Sequence record: MN850579.1
Direction: 5' to 3' (one strand)
From: Escherichia phage mogra
DNA: 64,000 bases
Below, one piece after another: positions 1 to 60,881 of the stretch; position 1 is the stretch's first letter; every line of letters begins with the position of its first letter. Under the pieces are notes generated by a model. The model ran no database searches and had not been told where the DNA came from. It saw only the letters and a program-made list of their open reading frames with translations. Made by a program: the position numbers and the translations under genes.

Positions 1-1
1 A

Positions 2-232
2 GCTTGTTATGTTACATTAAATCGTGTCAATAATGTTATTTCTAAGATTGGGACTGTAACGCCAAAAGATTTTGGCAAAGTGATGGGATTGACTGTTCAA
101 GATATTCTGGAAGAAACTTCTCGTGAAGGTATTGTATTAACATCATCTGATAATCCGAATCTTGTTAAGAAAGAATTAGTCCGAATGGTGCAAGATGTTC
201 TGCGTCCTGCATGGATTGAATTAGTATCATAA
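2..232 (+). CDS. rnlB: 3' end of an RNA ligase 2 (RnlB)-like gene; 5' part outside window
   Basis: Open frame from window edge to TAA at 230-232 (...KELVRMVQDVLRPAWIELVS*); convergent with gene 24 as in T4 gene order; assignment from memory. Confidence 0.45.
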   Translation, partial: ACYVTLNRVNNVISKIGTVTPKDFGKVMGLTVQDILEETSREGIVLTSSDNPNLVKKELVRMVQDVLRPAWIELVS

Positions 233-266
233 CAAAAAAAAAGGGACCTTACGGTCCCTTTTTTTT
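233..266. terminator. Bidirectional rho-independent terminator between convergent rnlB-like gene and gene 24
   Basis: A9 run, GGGACC-TTAC-GGTCCC hairpin, T8 run; works on both strands. Confidence 0.8.
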
Positions 267-268
267 GT

Positions 269-1552
269 TTATTCATCTATAATAATTTTAGGCAATTTAA
301 CACCGAGTAAAACAGACAAGTCTGAACGTCCTGCCATTTTATCCATGTCCCCGCCATCAATTACTCTCGCTTCTTTTTCATCTTTTGCTACTGTATAAGG
401 ATTTGCTGATAAAGCATATCTAACCAATAAACCTATAGACGGTTGTAAGCTTTCCGGATCAACTACAACTTTAAATGCACCGACATGTTCCGGGTCGTCT
501 AAATCCATTCCTTCAGTGTATGGAGCATAAAAGATGGACCCTACAATCTCTTTTTCGCCGATATTTTCTACAACACCCACAATAACATAATCTAACGGAC
601 TGTTGGTATCGCAGTAAAGAGGTAATCCATTTGCCAAGAATCCATAAGCATTTTGTGAAAGGTACTTATCATCTTCCGGCTTATGTTTTAACCAACCCGA
701 AGCAGCAAGAATAGCAGCCGCACGAGCTGAAGCTACGCAAAACGTTGCAGTATAAGTTGACTCTTTTTGAATGTGTGATACCATTTCACACACCATTCGA
801 TATAACGAACGACCTGCTTCCGGAGCAGACGCATAACTCAAGTCAATAAATCCGGTGTCAGTAATTCCAGTAACTTTATAACGTTTCGATACGGTAATTA
901 AAGACTGAAGAATATCTTTATTAATTTCATCAGCCATTTCAGTAGCAAGCAAATCTTCTAAGAAGTTAGGGGCATCAAATCCATTCGCTTCCAAATCTTG
1001 CGCTAATTCAACCGTGAGGCCGGTTTTAAGTTTACGAGATTTGACTGAAGTTTGCCATTTATTAATCTGGAATCTTGCATCAGAAATTTCGCTACCAGAG
1101 CTTTCAAATTTGCTTGTTACCGCTGCATCTGAAAATAACCGTACCTTTAAATGAACGACCGCAATCTGAAGAGCTAATTCTAGATCACTTTCCTGAATAT
1201 CTGCAAACGGTGTATCTTCTAACACTTTATAGACTATATTATTATATTTGAAAAAATCACCTTTATTTAGTGTGGCTTTTGATTCTTCTGTGAGCTCGGT
1301 AATTTTTTCTCGGTCTACATATCCAGCTTCACCTGCATAAGTAGCACCAGTTTTAAATGTTAATTCGTTGTCTGGGTTAAGATATTTAATACCATAAAAA
1401 GCAGCAACAGGTTGATTAGTTCTTTGTGTTGCCACAATGTCAGAATATATTAATTTAGTCGTAGCGCGAGTCAAAGCAACGAGATTTGGGCGACCGATTG
1501 AGTTGCTAGTAGACGTTGTAGATTCACGCAATAATTTTTGGATTTTACTCAT
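269..1552 (-). CDS. 24: gp24 head vertex protein
   Basis: 427 aa ORF; sequence near-identical to T4 gp24 as remembered (MSKIQKLLRESTT...KLPKIIIDE). Confidence 0.95.
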   Translation of the reverse strand: MSKIQKLLRESTTSTSNSIGRPNLVALTRATTKLIYSDIVATQRTNQPVAAFYGIKYLNPDNELTFKTGATYAGEAGYVDREKITELTEESKATLNKGDFFKYNNIVYKVLEDTPFADIQESDLELALQIAVVHLKVRLFSDAAVTSKFESSGSEISDARFQINKWQTSVKSRKLKTGLTVELAQDLEANGFDAPNFLEDLLATEMADEINKDILQSLITVSKRYKVTGITDTGFIDLSYASAPEAGRSLYRMVCEMVSHIQKESTYTATFCVASARAAAILAASGWLKHKPEDDKYLSQNAYGFLANGLPLYCDTNSPLDYVIVGVVENIGEKEIVGSIFYAPYTEGMDLDDPEHVGAFKVVVDPESLQPSIGLLVRYALSANPYTVAKDEKEARVIDGGDMDKMAGRSDLSVLLGVKLPKIIIDE

Positions 1553-1578
1553 TGCATTTTTCCTTATGTGATATAGAT

Positions 1579-1586
1579 TATTTATA
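1579..1586 (-). promoter_or_regulatory. T4-type late promoter (TATAAATA) for gene 24
   Basis: TATAAATA on minus strand about 27 nt upstream of gene 24 ATG. Confidence 0.7.
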
Positions 1587-1592
1587 AAGATT

Positions 1593-1652
1593 GTTTACAA
1601 CGTATTTGGTATGTGATACTATAGACTTATCAACTACAGAGGAGTAAACAAA
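1593..1652 (+). promoter_or_regulatory. Early sigma70-type promoter cassette (PeSL-like) inside the 23/24 intergenic region
   Basis: GTTTAC -35, about 17-bp spacer, TGnTACTAT -10, GAGGAG SD; 1613-1658 identical to 38451-38496. Confidence 0.6.
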
Positions 1653-1769
1653 ATGACTAAAGCACGTTTCTTACGAGATACTTTAAAAGTTCTGGAAGCT
1701 GAAGCAGTTAAGTTAGTAGAAAATATGGTGCAAAAGTTAATGGTAATGCCTTCAACAAAGTATGGATGA
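1653..1769 (+). CDS. Small hypothetical protein (38 aa) driven by the early promoter cassette
   Basis: ATG 9 nt after GAGGAG SD; MTKARFLRDTLKVLEAEAVKLVENMVQKLMVMPSTKYG; below ORF-track size cutoff. Confidence 0.4.
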   Translation: MTKARFLRDTLKVLEAEAVKLVENMVQKLMVMPSTKYG

Positions 1770-1921
1770 AAGTTGATTCTGAAGCTCGAGCTAAAGGTTA
1801 TTGGGCCACTGATAAACTTGCATCATTCAAAAACAAAGACGGTTCTCCGGCATATGTCCAAGAAGGTATGCCTAATTGGCAAAATATTTTGAAAACTTAC
1901 ATCGAAATTGCACAGAAATAA
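1766..1921 (+). CDS. Small hypothetical protein (51 aa), ATGA-overlapped with the preceding small ORF
   Basis: ATG overlaps upstream TGA (ATGA coupling); MKVDSEARAKGYWATDKLASFKNKDGSPAYVQEGMPNWQNILKTYIEIAQK. Confidence 0.35.
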   Translation: MKVDSEARAKGYWATDKLASFKNKDGSPAYVQEGMPNWQNILKTYIEIAQK

Positions 1922-1949
1922 AACCAAAAATGGGAGACCGAAGTCTCCC
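1922..1949 (-). terminator. Rho-independent terminator downstream of gene 23
   Basis: Minus strand: GGGAGAC-TTCG-GTCTCCC hairpin followed by T-run, right after gp23 stop. Confidence 0.75.
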
Positions 1950-1973
1950 AAAATAAGATTTAATCAATTAAGA

Positions 1974-3542
1974 TTAGATGCCTTTTACATATACACGGCG
2001 GAAGTAAGCGTTCTTACCAAGGCTGTTCAGGATAGACGGCATACCGGACTGGATGCGAGCACCTGGAGCCTGCAGGGAACTTTCAGCAAACGGGTTAACA
2101 CCGATACCGTAACGAGTTTTAAAGCCCATTACCGGCTGGAAGTTCTTAGGATCGGAACCACGCAGTGGGGTAAGTGCAACGTAAGGAGCATAGTAAATAC
2201 CTGCATCCATTTCGTTAGCGCCTTTGTAACCAACGGTGAAGTAATCCTGTTTAGCATACTGGTCGATGTATACGCGGTATTTACCACCAAGTACACCGGC
2301 AAATACAGACTTAGTAGTGTCGGTATTAAAACCGGAAGCCAGACCCTGTGCAGCGTAAGAAATACCAGTATCAACTGAAGCCAGTACGTTAACTACGTTA
2401 CGGGAAGCGATAATGAAGTTACCTTCACCACGACCGGTTTGACGAGCAATTTCAACTGCTTCTTTATCAATCTGGAACAACAGAGATTTAAAGCTTTCAC
2501 CGGCCCAACGAGCACCACGGATATCAATCGGGTCCTGGAAGTCAAATACACCAGCTTTAGAACCTGGAGTCAGGGTCATACCAGATTTACCAACCTGTGC
2601 TGAGTAGTTAATCCAATCAACAACTTCACGGTTGATTTCTAGCATAATTTCTGTAGCCAGAATACCGCTCAGTTCAGCATCAGCATCCATACCGTGTACT
2701 GCACGGAGGTCTTGTGCTAATTCGATAGAGTAAGCAGCTTTCAGCTGGCGAGATTTAGCTTCGATAACTTGTTTATCGATACGGAAGCCCATTTCATTCC
2801 ATGGGTTATCGGTAGAACCGTTGAAACCTTCCTGAAGTTCAGCGATAGAAGTAGCCATACCTTCAGCGATTTCTACCAGTGCACCAGCTTCCATTTGTTT
2901 CTTAACTTCTGCATCTAATTTAGCTGCATCAGTTGCACCAGAATCAAGTGTTACGACAGCAGAAGCTTGCAGATATACAGTACCAGTTTCTTGGAAGAAG
3001 TGAGTATAGATATCACCTACAACAGTAGTAGTGTCAGCAGCCAGAGCTGGGAATTTCTTAGCAGCACCCTGACCAGAGAACATCGCGTCTGGGGCATACA
3101 TCGGATGGAAAGCTTCTTTAGCGCCAGCAGCGATAGGGTCTTTACCATATACTGCACGGAGAGCAAATACCTGGCCGGTCGGGCTGTTCATAGGCTGAAC
3201 ACCACAAATATCAAAAGCGATCAGATTAGGAATAGCACGACGAACCATACCCATAACTGCCGGCCCAATTTGGGTTACTGCACCAGAGGTTTGACCTGCT
3301 GCGATGTTCTGAGCATTATAACCATGGTCACCACCAATTTCAGCTTCGGTCAAGAAAGAACCAAATGCCTGAGCGATTTTCTCGTCTTTATATTCAGGGG
3401 ATACTTCGAAATCTTTTTCCTGGTTTTCGAAGATTTTAGCGATAATAGCCTGCTTGCTATTAGCGATTTCCGGCAGGCCTTCACCTTCCAGCAGTTCTTT
3501 CCATTTGTCTACGAGCTGAGCTTTAGTTTTGATAGTAGTCAT
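1974..3542 (-). CDS. 23: gp23 major capsid protein
   Basis: 522 aa; near-identical to T4 gp23 (MTTIKTKAQLVDKWKELLEGEGLPEIANSKQ...RRVYVKGI). Confidence 0.98.
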   Translation of the reverse strand: MTTIKTKAQLVDKWKELLEGEGLPEIANSKQAIIAKIFENQEKDFEVSPEYKDEKIAQAFGSFLTEAEIGGDHGYNAQNIAAGQTSGAVTQIGPAVMGMVRRAIPNLIAFDICGVQPMNSPTGQVFALRAVYGKDPIAAGAKEAFHPMYAPDAMFSGQGAAKKFPALAADTTTVVGDIYTHFFQETGTVYLQASAVVTLDSGATDAAKLDAEVKKQMEAGALVEIAEGMATSIAELQEGFNGSTDNPWNEMGFRIDKQVIEAKSRQLKAAYSIELAQDLRAVHGMDADAELSGILATEIMLEINREVVDWINYSAQVGKSGMTLTPGSKAGVFDFQDPIDIRGARWAGESFKSLLFQIDKEAVEIARQTGRGEGNFIIASRNVVNVLASVDTGISYAAQGLASGFNTDTTKSVFAGVLGGKYRVYIDQYAKQDYFTVGYKGANEMDAGIYYAPYVALTPLRGSDPKNFQPVMGFKTRYGIGVNPFAESSLQAPGARIQSGMPSILNSLGKNAYFRRVYVKGI

Positions 3543-3559
3543 TTGTGTTAACCTTTAAA

Positions 3560-4372
3560 TTAGAAACGAGATGCGACTTTCGCATATAAACTTACATTAG
3601 AATTCTGTTCTACCTGAGTTGTGGTAGTGTCAACTGCTTCGGCAACAAAATTAAGACCGGCAGCGTCATTGTCAACTGTATTTATACTTTCGGTAATAGC
3701 GGCTTCTTCTTTAGTAGAACCTTTAACCATTTCTACAATAGCAGTTAACTTAGTACCAAATGCGTCAGAATAATCCATACCTTCAACCAGGCCAATAACT
3801 TTTTCTTTCTGAGATTCAGTCAGGTCTTTTACGCTTTCATTAATAGCGGTTTCACGCTGAACGTAATTGATATATGCATCACGTTTGGTAACTTCTTCGA
3901 ACAAACGAGCGGTTTCTTCTTTATGTTCGGCCAGCTCTTCTTCCATTTCTGCTACAACATCTACAGATTCTTCTGGAACAACAACGTTATGTTCAACAAA
4001 CAGTTCTTTCAGACCACCAAGCATGGATTCGAACAAATCAGCTTTAATGCCTTTATCAACTGCGATTTGGTTTTCTGCGAGCCATTCTTTTGCAAGATGG
4101 TCTAGGAATTTAGAAGCTTGTTCAGCCAATTTTTTATCAGCTTTCTCTTCAGCATCTTCTTTAGCCTTTTCAACTTCTTCTTCGGCTTTTTCGGCGATAG
4201 CTTTGATATGAGATTCAGCTAGTTTGACTGCTTCCTGCTTAACGGTGGCTTCGAATACAGTGCTGAAATTAGCTTTAACGTCCGGAGACAGTTCTACTGA
4301 TTCGAAAACACTATTAAGAGCAACTGAAGTCTCGATATTCTGAGCTTCTTTCAAAAGTTGTTCTTTGATCAT
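3560..4372 (-). CDS. 22: gp22 prohead core scaffold protein
   Basis: 270 aa acidic coiled-coil ORF in T4 position upstream of gene 23. Confidence 0.9.
   Translation of the reverse strand: MIKEQLLKEAQNIETSVALNSVFESVELSPDVKANFSTVFEATVKQEAVKLAESHIKAIAEKAEEEVEKAKEDAEEKADKKLAEQASKFLDHLAKEWLAENQIAVDKGIKADLFESMLGGLKELFVEHNVVVPEESVDVVAEMEEELAEHKEETARLFEEVTKRDAYINYVQRETAINESVKDLTESQKEKVIGLVEGMDYSDAFGTKLTAIVEMVKGSTKEEAAITESINTVDNDAAGLNFVAEAVDTTTTQVEQNSNVSLYAKVASRF
3679..3686 (-). promoter_or_regulatory. Late promoter-like TATAAATA inside 3' end of gene 22 (candidate P23)
   Basis: Exact TATAAATA on minus strand 137 nt upstream of gene 23 ATG. Confidence 0.4.
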
Positions 4373-4402
4373 TTTAGTGTCCTGTGGTTTAGATTACATT
4401 AT

Positions 4403-4410
4403 TATTTATA
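4403..4410 (-). promoter_or_regulatory. Late promoter (TATAAATA) for gene 22
   Basis: TATAAATA on minus strand about 31 nt upstream of gene 22 ATG, overlapping gene 21 stop. Confidence 0.65.
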
Positions 4411-5047
4411 ATGCTTTTAAGCTCTCTGCGAGAGCTTTAAATGCTTCATCAGCACTGTTTTTGGTGATTTCCACCGAATTTTCTGATTCTGATATTTGTT
4501 TAGGAGTAACCCAAGCATCTGGAGCAGAAGGTCCCCATACGGCATCTACGCCGACGGTTAATTTAAATCCTTCGTTCACGATACGGTACCCTTTATTGGT
4601 GTCGGTTAAAGAACCAAGACCACGAGAGGAAACACCTGGAATCCAACCAGCTCGTATATTAGCAGCTAATTTATCACCGGGACCATGGTCGCCTTCAATA
4701 ATTCTAGCACGTCCATATACATCGTTTCCTTTCCACCACATATCTTCAATAATGATAGCGGCTTGCATAGGGTCAACATTTGCGCGAGGTGGATGGTTTA
4801 ATTCTCCAAGGGCTTGTTTGGTTGCGACTTGTTCTTTAATATAGTCACTTACTGCTTTTTCCAAAACGCGTTTAGGATATAAACGTTTATTTCGGTTAAC
4901 AACCTCTGCCTGAAGAAAAATACCTTCTATATAAAGCCCTGGTTTTAAGCCAGAATCTTTTCCATCATGAGATTCCAACATTGGAACGCCATCAATAATC
5001 TCACCGGGTTGACCCCAAGTTTCAATAAGTAACTCGGGTTTATTCAT
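4406..5047 (-). CDS. 21: gp21 prohead protease
   Basis: 213 aa; matches T4 gp21 ([31 protein letters not shown]...). Confidence 0.93.
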   Translation of the reverse strand: MNKPELLIETWGQPGEIIDGVPMLESHDGKDSGLKPGLYIEGIFLQAEVVNRNKRLYPKRVLEKAVSDYIKEQVATKQALGELNHPPRANVDPMQAAIIIEDMWWKGNDVYGRARIIEGDHGPGDKLAANIRAGWIPGVSSRGLGSLTDTNKGYRIVNEGFKLTVGVDAVWGPSAPDAWVTPKQISESENSVEITKNSADEAFKALAESLKAL

Positions 5048-21922: not shown

Positions 21923-21930
21923 ATTTATAG
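21923..21930 (-). promoter_or_regulatory. Late promoter (TATAAATA) for gene 9
   Basis: TATAAATA on minus strand 34 nt upstream of gene 9 ATG. Confidence 0.6.
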
Positions 21931-21932
21931 AT

Positions 21933-21958
21933 ACAAAAATGGGAGCCCGAAGGCTCCC
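21933..21958 (-). terminator. Rho-independent terminator after gene 8
   Basis: Minus strand GGGAGCC-TTCG-GGCTCCC hairpin then ATTTTTGT. Confidence 0.75.
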
Positions 21959-21961
21959 TAA

Positions 21962-22966
21962 TTAAAACATAAACAAAATGTTAATTTCTTCTGTTTGGTC
22001 CATTGCCATAATAACAGGTGGTCGGTTTTCCATATAAATCATTTCACCGGAATGACGTTGCAGGTCTCTAGGGTCGTAATAATCCTTTTCTGCTTTAACA
22101 TTAGGGTCATTTGGATTTTTCTTAGCTTCTAACGGGTTTGCGATAATTGATATCTGTCTAAAACCCTTGTTACCAGGCAAAGCTGCCTCAGGGAAATAAA
22201 CAGAATCAAAATATGCTTTAAACCGCATCGTATTAGCTTTAACACGGTAAATCAAACCGTAGTCATCTTGTTGCCAAGTTAAGTTATTTTCATATCCCCA
22301 ACGGGTGGGGTCTTCTTTAATTTCTTCCGGCCATGGAACTACAAGATATTCGTTAGTGCAACGGTTAATTGACACATCGGCAGGAATCTCATAAAGGTAT
22401 TCCCAAATATATCCATCACCGGTTTCGATAACCCCATTAGCATCGCCCCTGCCTTCAGGAGGAGACATAGAACGAACAGACGGGGTCCATTTACCACCTA
22501 ATTTAAGACATTCATCTTTATTATCTAAAGATTCTATTGAACAGAGCCCTACGTCAGGGACATCTAAACAACGGTAAATTAACCAACCAGCTCCAACTTC
22601 TGTCGCGTTGTACGGAGCAGTATTACATGCGACTATATCGTTAATTCTAAACGTGTAAGGGTCTGGATATCGCACATCTCCCCAATCACGTCTAGGAATA
22701 ACAGAATCTAACATTGAAGGTAAAACTTTAACGGTACCCATCATATGGGTCCACATATCAGTAACACCAAGAACAGAATCTGTAGGATAAGGTGGGGCGA
22801 AGCCCACCTCATTTTCATTTGACGCCCAAGGCTCTGAACGTCCAAACGTAATATAAATGGAGTTCTTATCATCTCCATCCCCAACTGAATTATAAAAATT
22901 CAGCATTTTCTCTGTTCTAAATTTTGATGTAACTATTGCACGATAGATAACACTTGAATCATTCAT
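21962..22966 (-). CDS. 8: gp8 baseplate wedge protein
   Basis: 334 aa, same length as T4 gp8. Confidence 0.93.
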   Translation of the reverse strand: MNDSSVIYRAIVTSKFRTEKMLNFYNSVGDGDDKNSIYITFGRSEPWASNENEVGFAPPYPTDSVLGVTDMWTHMMGTVKVLPSMLDSVIPRRDWGDVRYPDPYTFRINDIVACNTAPYNATEVGAGWLIYRCLDVPDVGLCSIESLDNKDECLKLGGKWTPSVRSMSPPEGRGDANGVIETGDGYIWEYLYEIPADVSINRCTNEYLVVPWPEEIKEDPTRWGYENNLTWQQDDYGLIYRVKANTMRFKAYFDSVYFPEAALPGNKGFRQISIIANPLEAKKNPNDPNVKAEKDYYDPRDLQRHSGEMIYMENRPPVIMAMDQTEEINILFMF

Positions 22967-34664: not shown

Positions 34665-34730
34665 GTTTACATAAGGATGTTGGTGTGATACTATCATCCT
34701 ATCAAATCACAAACCAAACGGAAAAAACAA
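34665..34730 (+). promoter_or_regulatory. Early promoter cassette (PeSL-like)
   Basis: GTTTAC -35, 17-bp spacer, GATACTAT -10 between GGATG/CATCC arms. Confidence 0.65.
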
Positions 34731-35042: not shown

Positions 35043-35103
35043 TTTACAACAAGATAGGACTATGTTATAGTAGTCCTATCAAAACAACCAAACGGAACCT
35101 AAA
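35043..35103 (+). promoter_or_regulatory. Early promoter cassette (PeSL)
   Basis: TTTACA -35, 17-bp spacer, TGT-TATAGT -10 in loop of TAGGACTA/TAGTCCTA 8-bp hairpin. Confidence 0.7.
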
Positions 35104-35370: not shown

Positions 35371-35437
35371 TATACAAGCCTATAGGGATATGTTATAGTA
35401 GTCCTATCAAAACAAAATGAGTAAATGGAGAAATAAA
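35371..35437 (+). promoter_or_regulatory. Early promoter cassette (degenerate PeSL)
   Basis: TATACA -35-like, 17-bp spacer, TATAGT -10, conserved leader AAAATGAGTAAATGGAGAAATAAAATG. Confidence 0.5.
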
Positions 35438-37811: not shown

Positions 37812-37838
37812 GCCCCTTCCTTACGGTTGGGGCTTTTT
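37812..37838 (+). terminator. Rho-independent terminator
   Basis: GCCCC...GGGGC hairpin + T5. Confidence 0.7.
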
Positions 37839-37871
37839 GGTATCTAGGGCATAAAAATATTTCATAAAGAT

Positions 37872-37928: not shown

Positions 37929-38432
37929 ATGAGTCTTTACACTGAACTGAATAAAAAATCTGAAGAATCTGCTGAAACTATTTTTAAAAACGTGCAAAAG
38001 CGTATTTTAGAAAAGATGTATAACGCTGCAGCTAAAGGTGAAAAATCTTGCCGGTTTCCGATTAGGTGTTCTTCAGATTTATGCGCAAATACTATTGAAT
38101 GGCTGGAAAGTGAAGGTCTTACGGTAGAGAAAAACCCGGCGACTTCTATTGATAGCGAATCATATATTAGTATTTCTTGGGATAAATCAAGGGTAGAAGA
38201 GAAAGATGGTGATTGGGTTGTAGATGTTAAAACTTCTGATGGTGGACGTTCTGTTGAAGTTTCAGCTGTAGTTAAAGGTACCCACGAACAAAGGACTTGG
38301 GGTTGGGGTGGTGAAGAAAAAGAAATTGTTCTTAGTGTGATTGCCAGGTCAACTAGTAATAAAATTGCACAAAGCATCATTGACGCTGCAATTGCTGAAG
38401 CAGAAAAAATTTGCAAAATTAAAAATAAATGA
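37929..38432 (+). CDS. Hypothetical protein
   Basis: 167 aa ORF after promoter cassette. Confidence 0.65.
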   Translation: MSLYTELNKKSEESAETIFKNVQKRILEKMYNAAAKGEKSCRFPIRCSSDLCANTIEWLESEGLTVEKNPATSIDSESYISISWDKSRVEEKDGDWVVDVKTSDGGRSVEVSAVVKGTHEQRTWGWGGEEKEIVLSVIARSTSNKIAQSIIDAAIAEAEKICKIKNK

Positions 38433-38491
38433 TGTACAAGCACCAAGGATGGTGATACTATAGACTTATCAACTACAGAGGAGTAAACAAA
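38433..38491 (+). promoter_or_regulatory. Early promoter cassette; 46-nt identical to copy at 1613-1658
   Basis: TGTACA -35-like, CACCAAGGATGGTG palindrome, GATACTATAG -10, GAGGAG SD. Confidence 0.65.
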
Positions 38492-38656
38492 ATGACTACT
38501 TTAATTATTTGGTTCGATGAAAATGAAGAAACATACTGTGTGAATATTGGTGAAAGTCCAATGCCTGAATTTGAATCCTCAGATAAAAACTCTGTTGTAT
38601 CTTGGGCTGAAGGTTATAAAGCAGCTAAAGGTGACGTTGAAATAATTTACATCTAA
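38492..38656 (+). CDS. Small hypothetical protein (54 aa)
   Basis: ATG 9 nt after GAGGAG; MTTLIIWFDENEETYCVNIGESP... Confidence 0.5.
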   Translation: MTTLIIWFDENEETYCVNIGESPMPEFESSDKNSVVSWAEGYKAAKGDVEIIYI

Positions 38657-43040: not shown

Positions 43041-43097
43041 TTTACACAATTATAGGACTATGTTATAGTAGTCCTACCAAAACATGAGGAGAATATT
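43041..43097 (+). promoter_or_regulatory. Early promoter cassette (PeSL)
   Basis: TTTACA -35, TATAGT -10 in TAGGACTA/TAGTCCTA hairpin. Confidence 0.7.
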
Positions 43098-45786: not shown

Positions 45787-46064
45787 AAACATACAATGAA
45801 TTTTTATCAGAATCTATTCTTAACGAAGCTACTGACACATTTGCAACTAAGCTAGGTGCAGCTTTGGTTGAAGCCGAAAGTCTATTAGCACGTATTTCTG
45901 AACTTGCTAGTAAGATAGATACTCGCAAATTTGAACGTACCAGCGATATCGTTAAGCTCGAAGCCTTGTTGCGTATGTGCGATAAACCGGAAGAAATCGC
46001 TAAGAACGGCTCGCTGATGAAACAACGTCTTGAAAAATATATTTCAGGCGCTTCAGAAAAATAG
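45783..46064 (+). CDS. Capsid-targeted protein (CTS-bearing), function unknown
   Basis: 93 aa; N-terminus [11 protein letters not shown]; ATGA overlap with e stop. Confidence 0.6.
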
Positions 46065-46065
46065 T

Positions 46066-46122
46066 GTTTACTTCCTCCAAGGACTTTGATACTATACATC
46101 TATCAACTACTTGGAGGAAATT
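46066..46122 (+). promoter_or_regulatory. Early promoter cassette (PeSL-like)
   Basis: GTTTAC -35, GATACTATAC -10 between TTCCTCCAAG/CTTGGAGGAA arms. Confidence 0.65.
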
Positions 46123-46536
46123 ATGACTCGTATCAATTTGACACTTGTTTCTGAACTGACCGACCAACATCTTATGGCTGAGTATCGTGAATTACCACGC
46201 GTATTTGGTGCAGTCCGTAAACATGTTCAAAACGGTAAACGTGTAAAGGATTTTAAAATCTCTCCAACATTTATCTTAGGCACAGGTCACGTAACATTCT
46301 TTTACGACAAACTCGAATTTTTACGTTTACGACAAATCGAGCTAATCGCTGAATGCTTGAAACGTGGTTTCAAAATCAAGGACACGACAGTCCAGGATAT
46401 TTCCGACATCCCTGCCGAATTTCGTAATAATTATGTCCCGTCTGAAGCGTCCATTGCGATAAGTCAAGCACGCTTAGATGAAAAAATTGCTCAACGTCCG
46501 ACTTGGTACAAATACTATGGTAAATCAATTTACTAA
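46123..46536 (+). CDS. denV: Endonuclease V (pyrimidine dimer DNA glycosylase)
   Basis: 137 aa; [34 protein letters not shown]... near-identical to T4 DenV. Confidence 0.96.
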
Positions 46537-49596: not shown

Positions 49597-49895
49597 TGGC
49601 TCAAATCCTATCAGGCTTTGGAACTCATTATGAAGCATCTAGACGCATAACTGAAAGCAATCCTTTTGGCCTTGTTCCGAAGCACAAGAAAATTCAAAGC
49701 CTTGATGACTTTGAGAACCGCCTATGGGCCCTCTTTAATGAGTACAAGGCATATCTGAAAGAAGACGCTGACTATTGTCTTGAAGAAGATGAGATTGCGT
49801 ATTACGAACAACGCCTTGAACAGCTCAAGAACTTCCGTCAGGTTCGTGACGAAGTATCTAAAGCAGTTAAAAAGTTAATTCCTTTCAAAGAGTAG
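49596..49895 (+). CDS. Hypothetical protein
   Basis: 99 aa; ATGG overlap. Confidence 0.6.
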
Positions 49896-49951
49896 TTTAC
49901 TTCTCCTCTAGTTGTGTTACTATAGACTTGTCAACTAGAGGAGAAATCAAA
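49895..49951 (+). promoter_or_regulatory. Early promoter cassette (PeSL-like) for regB
   Basis: GTTTAC -35, GTTACTATAG -10 in loop of TTCTCCTCTAGTTG/CAACTAGAGGAGAA hairpin that also contains the SD. Confidence 0.7.
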
Positions 49952-53508: not shown

Positions 53509-53536
53509 AGCCCCTTCCGAAAGGTCGGGGCTTTTT
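53509..53536 (+). terminator. Rho-independent terminator after rI
   Basis: AGCCCC...GGGGCT hairpin + T5. Confidence 0.7.
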
Positions 53537-53547
53537 GGCATCTATCA

Positions 53548-53603
53548 GTTTACTTCTCCTCAGGTTGTGTTATAGTAAACCTTACTTACTAGAGGAGAAC
53601 GTT
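53548..53603 (+). promoter_or_regulatory. Early promoter cassette (PeSL-like)
   Basis: GTTTAC -35, TATAGT -10, TTCTCCTC/GAGGAGAA arms. Confidence 0.65.
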
Positions 53604-59826: not shown

Positions 59827-59881
59827 TGTACAACCAAGGATGGTTGGAGTATAATAAATTTTTCAACATGAGGAATATAAA
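59827..59881 (+). promoter_or_regulatory. Early promoter cassette (CAACCAAGGATGGTTGG type)
   Basis: TGTACA -35-like, 17-bp spacer, TATAAT -10; upstream core shared with 60822 copy. Confidence 0.65.
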
Positions 59882-60821: not shown

Positions 60822-60881
60822 GTTTACAACCAAGGATGGTTGGAGTATAATGAGAACCTATCTTAACGAGAGGAAAATATT
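60822..60881 (+). promoter_or_regulatory. Early promoter cassette (CAACCAAGGATGGTTGG type)
   Basis: GTTTAC -35, TATAAT -10; promoter core duplicated from 59827 copy. Confidence 0.7.

Follow-up and report, generated by a model that had tools for sequence, protein, structure and literature searches.

The window, that is the whole stretch of 64,000 nucleotides of Escherichia phage mogra that was analysed (MN850579.1), comes from an RB69-like (Mosigvirus) T4-type coliphage and is at least 99% identical to phages of the Mosigvirus genus. Late genes occupy approximately its first 33 kb, and early-type promoters on the + strand are found across 34.6–63 kb. The late genes include those for the capsid vertex and the major capsid protein, genes 24 and 23, which are separated by a gap of 421 nt (Table 1). 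A small gene pointing against the two head genes is the only gene in this gap, in which no GIY-YIG endonuclease ORF of the segD type is present. The elements named in a preliminary description of the locus (-10, SD, ATG, late promoter, terminator and ATGA-coupled 38-aa and 51-aa ORFs) were all found in the sequence.

Table 1. Features of the gene 23/24 junction and of the second early cassette in the window.
Feature	Position	Strand	Remarks
Gene 24 (capsid vertex)	269–1552	-	
Gene 24 late promoter TATAAATA	1586–1579	-	From sequence; RB69 equivalent predicted
T4-type early (sigma-70) promoter	1593–1622	+	Predicted by a consensus scan and a second scan
Early -35 GTTTACA	1593–1599	+	
47-nt patch	1613–1659	+	Extended -10, leader, SD, ATG, codon 2 ACT and one further base
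Extended -10 TGn	1614–1616	+	
-10 TACTAT	1617–1622	+	
SD AGAGGAG	1638–1644	+	
Start ATG of junction gene	1653	+	
Junction gene	1653–1921	+	RB69 ORF188c/189c family (phrog_6003), frame split
38-aa ORF	1653–1769	+	
51-aa ORF	1766–1921	+	Overlaps 38-aa ORF in ATGA
Gene 23 intrinsic terminator hairpin	1931–1950	-	8-bp GC-rich stem, UUCG loop, then U run
Gene 23 (major capsid)	1974–3542	-	
Second cassette (copy A)	38432–38498	+	RB69 equivalent predicted
Copy A -35 ATGTAC	38432–38437	+	Weaker -35; 18-nt spacer follows
Copy A -10 TACTAT	38456–38461	+	Same leader and SD follow
Copy A start ATG	38492	+	
54-aa early ORF	38492–38656	+	RB69 ORF145c, phrog_5461 (PHROG E = 1e-35); hyperplastic e.8-frd.3 region

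The putative early promoter at the junction fits the T4 early consensus (UP-like A/T stretch, GTTTAC, TGn, TAnnnT), and we infer that transcription starts near 1629. The late promoter of gene 24 lies 6 nt from the divergent early -35 element, inside the A/T-rich upstream region of the early promoter. The equivalent features have been predicted in RB69 by Nolan et al. (2006, PMC1524935 supplement), who list an early promoter Pe:109605 (29.9 bits), a late promoter Pl:109573 and a terminator '23-><-RB69ORF188c'; the equivalent of the second cassette, Pe:72567, is given 33 bits, and neighbouring RB69 promoters were listed at 10.8–34.6 bits in that published HMM search. The locus is orthologous to the RB69 ORF188c/ORF189c locus (PMC1524935, additional files 3, 5 and 6), with the same promoter (3 substitutions), terminator and gene.

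The two ORFs had been proposed as genes for micro-proteins; they are instead the halves of one 89-aa gene. The same DNA forms a single annotated 270-nt ORF of 89 aa in PhAPEC2 and FP43, and alignment shows that the window lacks one A, with A4 at 1720–1723 in place of the A5 of relatives. In the shifted frame the first stop codon is a TGA which shares bases with Met39 of the intact frame, hence the ATGA overlap. When the frame is repaired, the 89-aa protein matches phrog_6003 over profile positions 1–90 of 90 (E = 2e-45); the uninterrupted frame of about 88–93 codons that is typical of this family is split in the window by the A4 run. Full-length tblastn matches with at least 95% identity are present in about 118 records, and the A-run deletion occurs in none of 116 matching phage genome records. 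The same A4 run, together with the same 38-aa and 51-aa gene calls, is present in an independent ENA metagenome contig (L015) that is two SNPs away, and sequencing error as the sole cause of the frameshift was rejected on this basis. The 51-aa product is identical to 'mogra_95' on the record for Escherichia phage mogra. Programmed frameshifting or transcriptional slippage is unlikely at an A run that is only four long.

The RB69 copy of the gene (L009, 45292–45532) has been damaged separately. It carries multiple lesions (a substitution cluster, a 1-nt insertion and a 1-nt deletion), which led to its annotation as ORF189c (29 aa) and ORF188c (41 aa), whereas a single 1-nt deletion produces the 38-aa and 51-aa ORFs of the window. 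The gene is thus real, but it has been lost on more than one occasion, having been broken independently in RB69 and in the mogra lineage. Most relatives carry a conserved, intact ORF. In annotation, the two small ORFs seen here would be better recorded as one frameshifted gene.

Searches did not point to a function for the product. No Pfam family matches the 89-aa protein above threshold, the sub-threshold match being to DUF4859 (E = 0.003). An AlphaFold model of the protein (pLDDT 76.8) contains three helices and a beta hairpin; a fold search of the PDB with this model matched nothing (best E = 0.34), and in BFVD the sole match is a member of the protein's own family. At the RNA level, Rfam has nothing in 1593–1921 and no match across 1–5000 that reaches its family gathering score; the sub-threshold matches in 1–5000 include the two terminator hairpins.

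The preliminary description had proposed that related phages be checked for anything at this junction. The gene, the abutment of the early -35 element on the late promoter, and the hairpin are found in Mosigvirus, Dhakavirus and Gaprivervirus. Gaprivervirus VR20 and the Dhakavirus phages WG01 and VR5 have homologs of the junction gene (30–38% protein identity, tblastn) at this position and in this orientation, and two metagenomic relatives (70% and 61% protein identity) likewise carry the gene between genes 23 and 24. The common layout consists of the start of gene 24, TATAAATA on the opposite strand, a few bases, G(T/G)TTAC, a -10 element, a leader with GGAG and an ATG. In VR20, WG01, VR5 and the metagenomic relatives it continues with an ORF of 88–93 codons, and a GC-rich hairpin precedes the end of gene 23. 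The arrangement TATTTATAAA(A)G..GTTTAC is present in PhAPEC2, RB69, VR20, WG01, VR5, JK45, L021, L023 and T4. Because the locus is conserved in this way, and because its promoter was already predicted in RB69 in 2006, this promoter is not a recent copy into an empty late spacer.

In T4 the slot holds segD, a free-standing gene for a GIY-YIG homing endonuclease (PMC2988022), which shares with the junction gene its orientation against the head genes and a convergent terminator arrangement. According to a review by Edgell et al. (2010, PMC2988022), a promoter specific to segD could not be found in T4. In the alignment, however, the corresponding position carries an early-type motif, ATTTAC-N18-TATTAT, which is as far from the ATG as the Mosigvirus early promoter is, and which is a candidate early promoter of T4 segD. 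In the T4 segment NC_000866 104000–107600 (L012) this motif abuts the late promoter of gene 24, on the - strand at about 3290–3225.

The window differs from T4 in having no endonuclease gene in this slot, and JK45 and LF82-9 carry a small ORF and a segD-like gene in one unit. These two phages are Mosigvirus-like elsewhere; at the junction their small gene is a Dhakavirus-type allele (about 31% protein identity), and behind it lies a GIY-YIG homing endonuclease gene resembling segD (LF82-9, L024, 1225–2270; JK45, L010, 39890–40925). This arrangement suggests that allele replacement may be linked to the endonuclease in LF82-9/JK45-like genomes.

Morons are self-contained units of promoter, gene and terminator in phage genomes. 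Like a moron, the junction unit is autonomous, having a promoter of its own and ending in a terminator hairpin, and it lies between two essential structural genes. It differs from morons in its flanks, where conserved regulatory sequence can serve as recombination homology, and in its position, which is conserved across genera.

The hairpin downstream of the junction gene (1931–1950) scores in a terminator scan on the - strand only, that is on the strand of gene 23. It folds at -17.4 kcal/mol on the - strand and at -13.7 kcal/mol on the + strand, where it is followed by AAAAUAAG with no U run and does not qualify as an intrinsic terminator of the + strand transcript. Since the terminator scores on the - strand only, read-through of an early transcript into the 3' end of gene 23 would be possible. 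It could be supposed that the unit is kept for this reason, with the read-through transcript acting in cis as an antisense RNA on the 3' end of gene 23 or on its terminator, and the ORF being secondary. The promoter and its orientation are conserved despite different cargo (the small ORF, the small ORF with a segD-like gene, or segD alone), and the promoter has been kept where the ORF was broken independently, exactly here and with 3 changes in the 47-mer of RB69. The hairpin of the WG01 type also scores as a terminator on the - strand only. However, the terminator in VR20 is two-way, as a T run is present on the + strand, no Rfam family was matched, and the ORF is maintained in most relatives. 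T4 early transcription declines from approximately 3 min after infection, and antisense RNA that is not translated is normally subject to termination by Rho (PMC2988021). By analogy, early transcription at the junction would fade before late genes such as gene 23 are expressed. We consider a cis-antisense effect on gene 23 unlikely, and equally unlikely that such an effect is what maintains the unit. A broader proposal, to which we likewise attach a low probability, is that an early promoter directed against the head genes is kept in at least four genera, whatever its cargo, for regulation of genes 23 and 24 through read-through RNA or through its overlap with the divergent late promoter. If this were true, an interchangeable leader would allow cargo to be swapped without disturbing the regulatory role for genes 23 and 24.

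The leader of the junction gene is shared with another early gene of the window, ORF145c, which has a present/absent pattern among close relatives. The preliminary description had reported an identity of 46 nt including the -10, SD, ATG and second codon. This was confirmed, and the exact repeat extends to 47 nt, with 1613–1659 identical to 38452–38498 and both copies on the + strand; the second coordinate had been off by one. The copies diverge abruptly, the -35 element and spacer being different upstream and the coding sequence being different from the eighth coding base onwards. In dinucleotide-preserving shuffles (n = 100) no match was found at three or fewer mismatches. The pair was also compared within a set of 22 early-promoter cassettes of the window, each taken as 47 nt from 4 nt before the -10 element. 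Among the resulting 231 pairs the median identity is 61% and the 95th percentile 76%, and the best pair after this one (100%) reaches 85%. The longest exact string in common is 47 nt for this pair and 26 nt for the next.

An assembly artefact, which had been put forward as a possible source of the identity, was rejected since the 47-mer is found in 141 phage records at 225 places. At the junction it is also present in PhAPEC2 and ZQ3, and with 3 changes in RB69 (read directly), and exact or near-exact copies at either of the two loci are found in 128 records across the phage collection. An exchange of this patch would be common to the genus or have spread within it, as its presence in three other Mosigviruses and these 128 records shows, and so the event cannot be called recent, as had been suggested.

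The identity could also have arisen with no exchange at all, if selection for maximal early transcription and translation had driven both leaders to one optimum. A strong consensus is indeed common to all the early cassettes, three of which start with ATGACTA. Against this, no other cassette pair exceeds 85% identity, the longest other exact string falls well short of 47 nt, and the orthologs of the junction gene at 61–70% protein identity have clearly different leaders. We therefore regard convergence by selection as very unlikely, and an exchange of the patch accounts for the identity better than does chance or selection.

The 47-nt patch belongs to D3, one of the dispersed repeat families D1–D3, D5 and D6, each of which has 4–8 copies on the + strand at 34.6–63 kb. 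The copy at 1593 is the exception in its family, being inside the head-gene block, and is the only early-type cassette within the late block of the window. The consensus of the early cassettes is TGnTAyTATAG(A/T)(C/T)CTATCAA..GGAG..AAAATG.

These cassettes are similar to PeSLs (promoter-early stem-loop elements). A PeSL combines an A/T-rich stretch and a sigma-70-like promoter, whose boxes are about 17 nt apart, with a stem-loop, an SD and a start codon; the stem-loop may lie upstream of the promoter boxes, between or over them, or ahead of the SD, and degraded 'half' forms also occur (Comeau et al. 2014, PMC4122927). PeSLs have been described in the pairs RB49/phi1, T4/PST and KVP40/nt-1 (PMC2839356, PMC4122927); we found no published description of them in RB69-like phages, in a search that was not aimed at them. 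Their crossovers have been mapped between the -10 element and the ATG, and a further feature is the excision of mini-circles during infection, seen by inverse PCR on infected cells (Arbiol 2010, PMC2839356). Like PeSLs, the cassettes of the window are dispersed combinations of A/T-rich sequence, sigma-70-like promoter, SD and start codon beside small accessory ORFs, most copies lie in hyperplastic early regions, and they can provide homology for the insertion, deletion and replacement of gene modules. The junction promoter has the elements of a PeSL promoter (GTTTACA, a spacer of 17–18 nt, TGnTACTAT, and ttatttataaagatt upstream), and both copies of the 47-mer have the SD and start codon at the 3' end of the cassette.

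Unlike PeSLs, both copies of the 47-mer are without a stem-loop, one copy lies within the conserved head-gene block, and the two show identity over a short internal patch, not the gain or loss of an ORF. The only inverted repeat in 1530–1670 is the 6-nt palindrome CTATAG, and 38370–38510 contains nothing relevant. A structured leader was rejected, as its fold is no better than that of shuffled sequence (z = +0.57). Stem-loops are present in other cassettes of the window, with 10 bp around the -10 element at 35053/35071 and arms of 19 nt at 49896/49932. Of the stem in the cassette at 49895, to which the 47-mer is 84% identical, the two copies have only the counterpart of the 3' arm. The 47-mer may therefore work like a PeSL, and by membership it would be at best a half PeSL.

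ORF indels and crossovers inside the cassette, in the zone from the -10 element to the ATG, are a further likeness to PeSLs and are found in ZQ3, PhAPEC2 and LF82-9. In ZQ3 and PhAPEC2, which lack ORF145c, AAACAAAATG contains the point at which copy A joins the next gene. At the junction, LF82-9 is chimeric within the SD; its left flank is of Mosigvirus type, as are the 32 nt with which the 47-mer begins and which end in GAGGAG. Beyond this point the end of the leader, the ORF and the segD-like gene are of Dhakavirus type. Judged from these junction sequences, the leader is a demonstrable site of recombination in relatives at both loci.

The direction of the transfer was considered from the second codon, which is ACT in ORF145c and in its ortholog in Tequatrovirus RB14; all other homologs of the junction gene have AAT, AAA or AAC. 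The RB14 ortholog has the same -35 element, spacer and coding start as ORF145c, and TATAGACTTATCAA is also common to the two. These data weakly favour the ORF145c cassette as the donor and the 23/24 junction as the recipient. No more than one or two nucleotides decide the direction: ACT differs from AAT by a single change, and ATGACTA is also the start in the cassette at 49895. The 47-mer is 76% identical to the RB14 ORF145c leader, 72% to the L023 junction leader and 76% to the WG01 junction leader, but these gapped identities of 72–76% are approximately at the 95th percentile of the background within the window (76%) and do not discriminate between the loci.

We therefore hypothesised that 1593–1950 is an old, self-contained early transcription unit, long resident between genes 23 and 24 and pointing against them, whose gene is broken and whose leader patch has been exchanged by recombination between dispersed cassettes. 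We hold this to be the probable explanation with considerable confidence. The unit would comprise an early promoter back to back with the late promoter of gene 24, a short unstructured leader with a strong SD, one accessory gene of 89 aa, and the convergent hairpin that would terminate gene 23; a 1-nt deletion in the A5 run has left the 38-aa and 51-aa ORFs in the mogra lineage. The 47-nt identity would be the product of ectopic homologous recombination or gene conversion between two dispersed early promoter-leader cassettes, in which only the patch from the -10 element to codon 2, and not the whole promoter, was exchanged. In T4-type recombination short homology is enough for this, and such cassettes act as linkers when gene modules are swapped.

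Exchange of a patch retains one part of the preliminary description, in which a whole cassette was proposed to have transposed recently into the late spacer, giving a new antisense transcript, two coupled micro-proteins and modulation of gene 23: a short patch of -10, leader, SD, ATG and codon 2 is indeed common to another early gene. The sharp borders of the exact identity, the position of the cassette as the sole one of early type in the late block and the lack of a + strand terminator before gene 23 all agree with transposition, but we consider it highly improbable, as the promoter was not newly copied (the -35 element, gene and hairpin stand at the junction in three genera and two metagenomic relatives), the -35 element and spacer differ between the copies so that the whole promoter did not move, and the ORFs are halves of an 89-aa gene that is full-length in about 118 records, the deletion being found in 0 of 116.

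The locus, promoter and terminator were already predicted in RB69, and the exchange of early cassettes is a described route of genome shuffling in T4-type phages. The junction indicates that cassette exchange may reach even a cassette inside the conserved head-gene block, and in natural variants of Mosigvirus the crossover zones are directly visible.

Further repeats were found among the cassettes and terminators of the window. At 49896–49950, 46063–46128 and 53554–53599 the -35/spacer region is complementary to the SD region, and the 19-nt arms at 49896/49932 are 89% complementary. Only RNA reading through from upstream would hold both arms and could hide the SD, as a transcript started at the promoter of the cassette itself would not include the two. 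Around the -10 element at 35053–35080 there is a 10-bp inverted repeat, GATAGGACTA / TAGTCCTATC, which by its predicted pairing is the stem-loop class of PeSL-like cassette, a class that is absent from both copies of the 47-mer. The TAGTCCTATC arm recurs in the D1/D2 copies at 35386, 38661, 41760, 43056 and 54016, as TAGTCCTACC at 43056. An exact 27-nt repeat, TACAACCAAGGATGGTTGGAGTATAAT, is present at 59829–59855 and 60825–60851, and comprises the spacer and -10 element of two early-type promoters 996 nt apart. Terminators are also repeated: the hairpins at 37812–37846 and 53510–53544 are near-copies (GCCCCTTCC..GGGGCTTTTTGG, 86% identity), and the type of the gene 23 terminator, GGGAG.CCGAAG.CTCCC, found at 1918–1967, recurs at 21927–21976 with 78% identity. 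Small early ORFs with similar 5' ends, AAATGAAAAC.TATCAAGA.TTTATCGC.GAAGC, are found at 34729, 46541, 46865 and 47485, and also at 35102 and 45781, suggesting a family of tandem or dispersed paralogs within the hyperplastic region.
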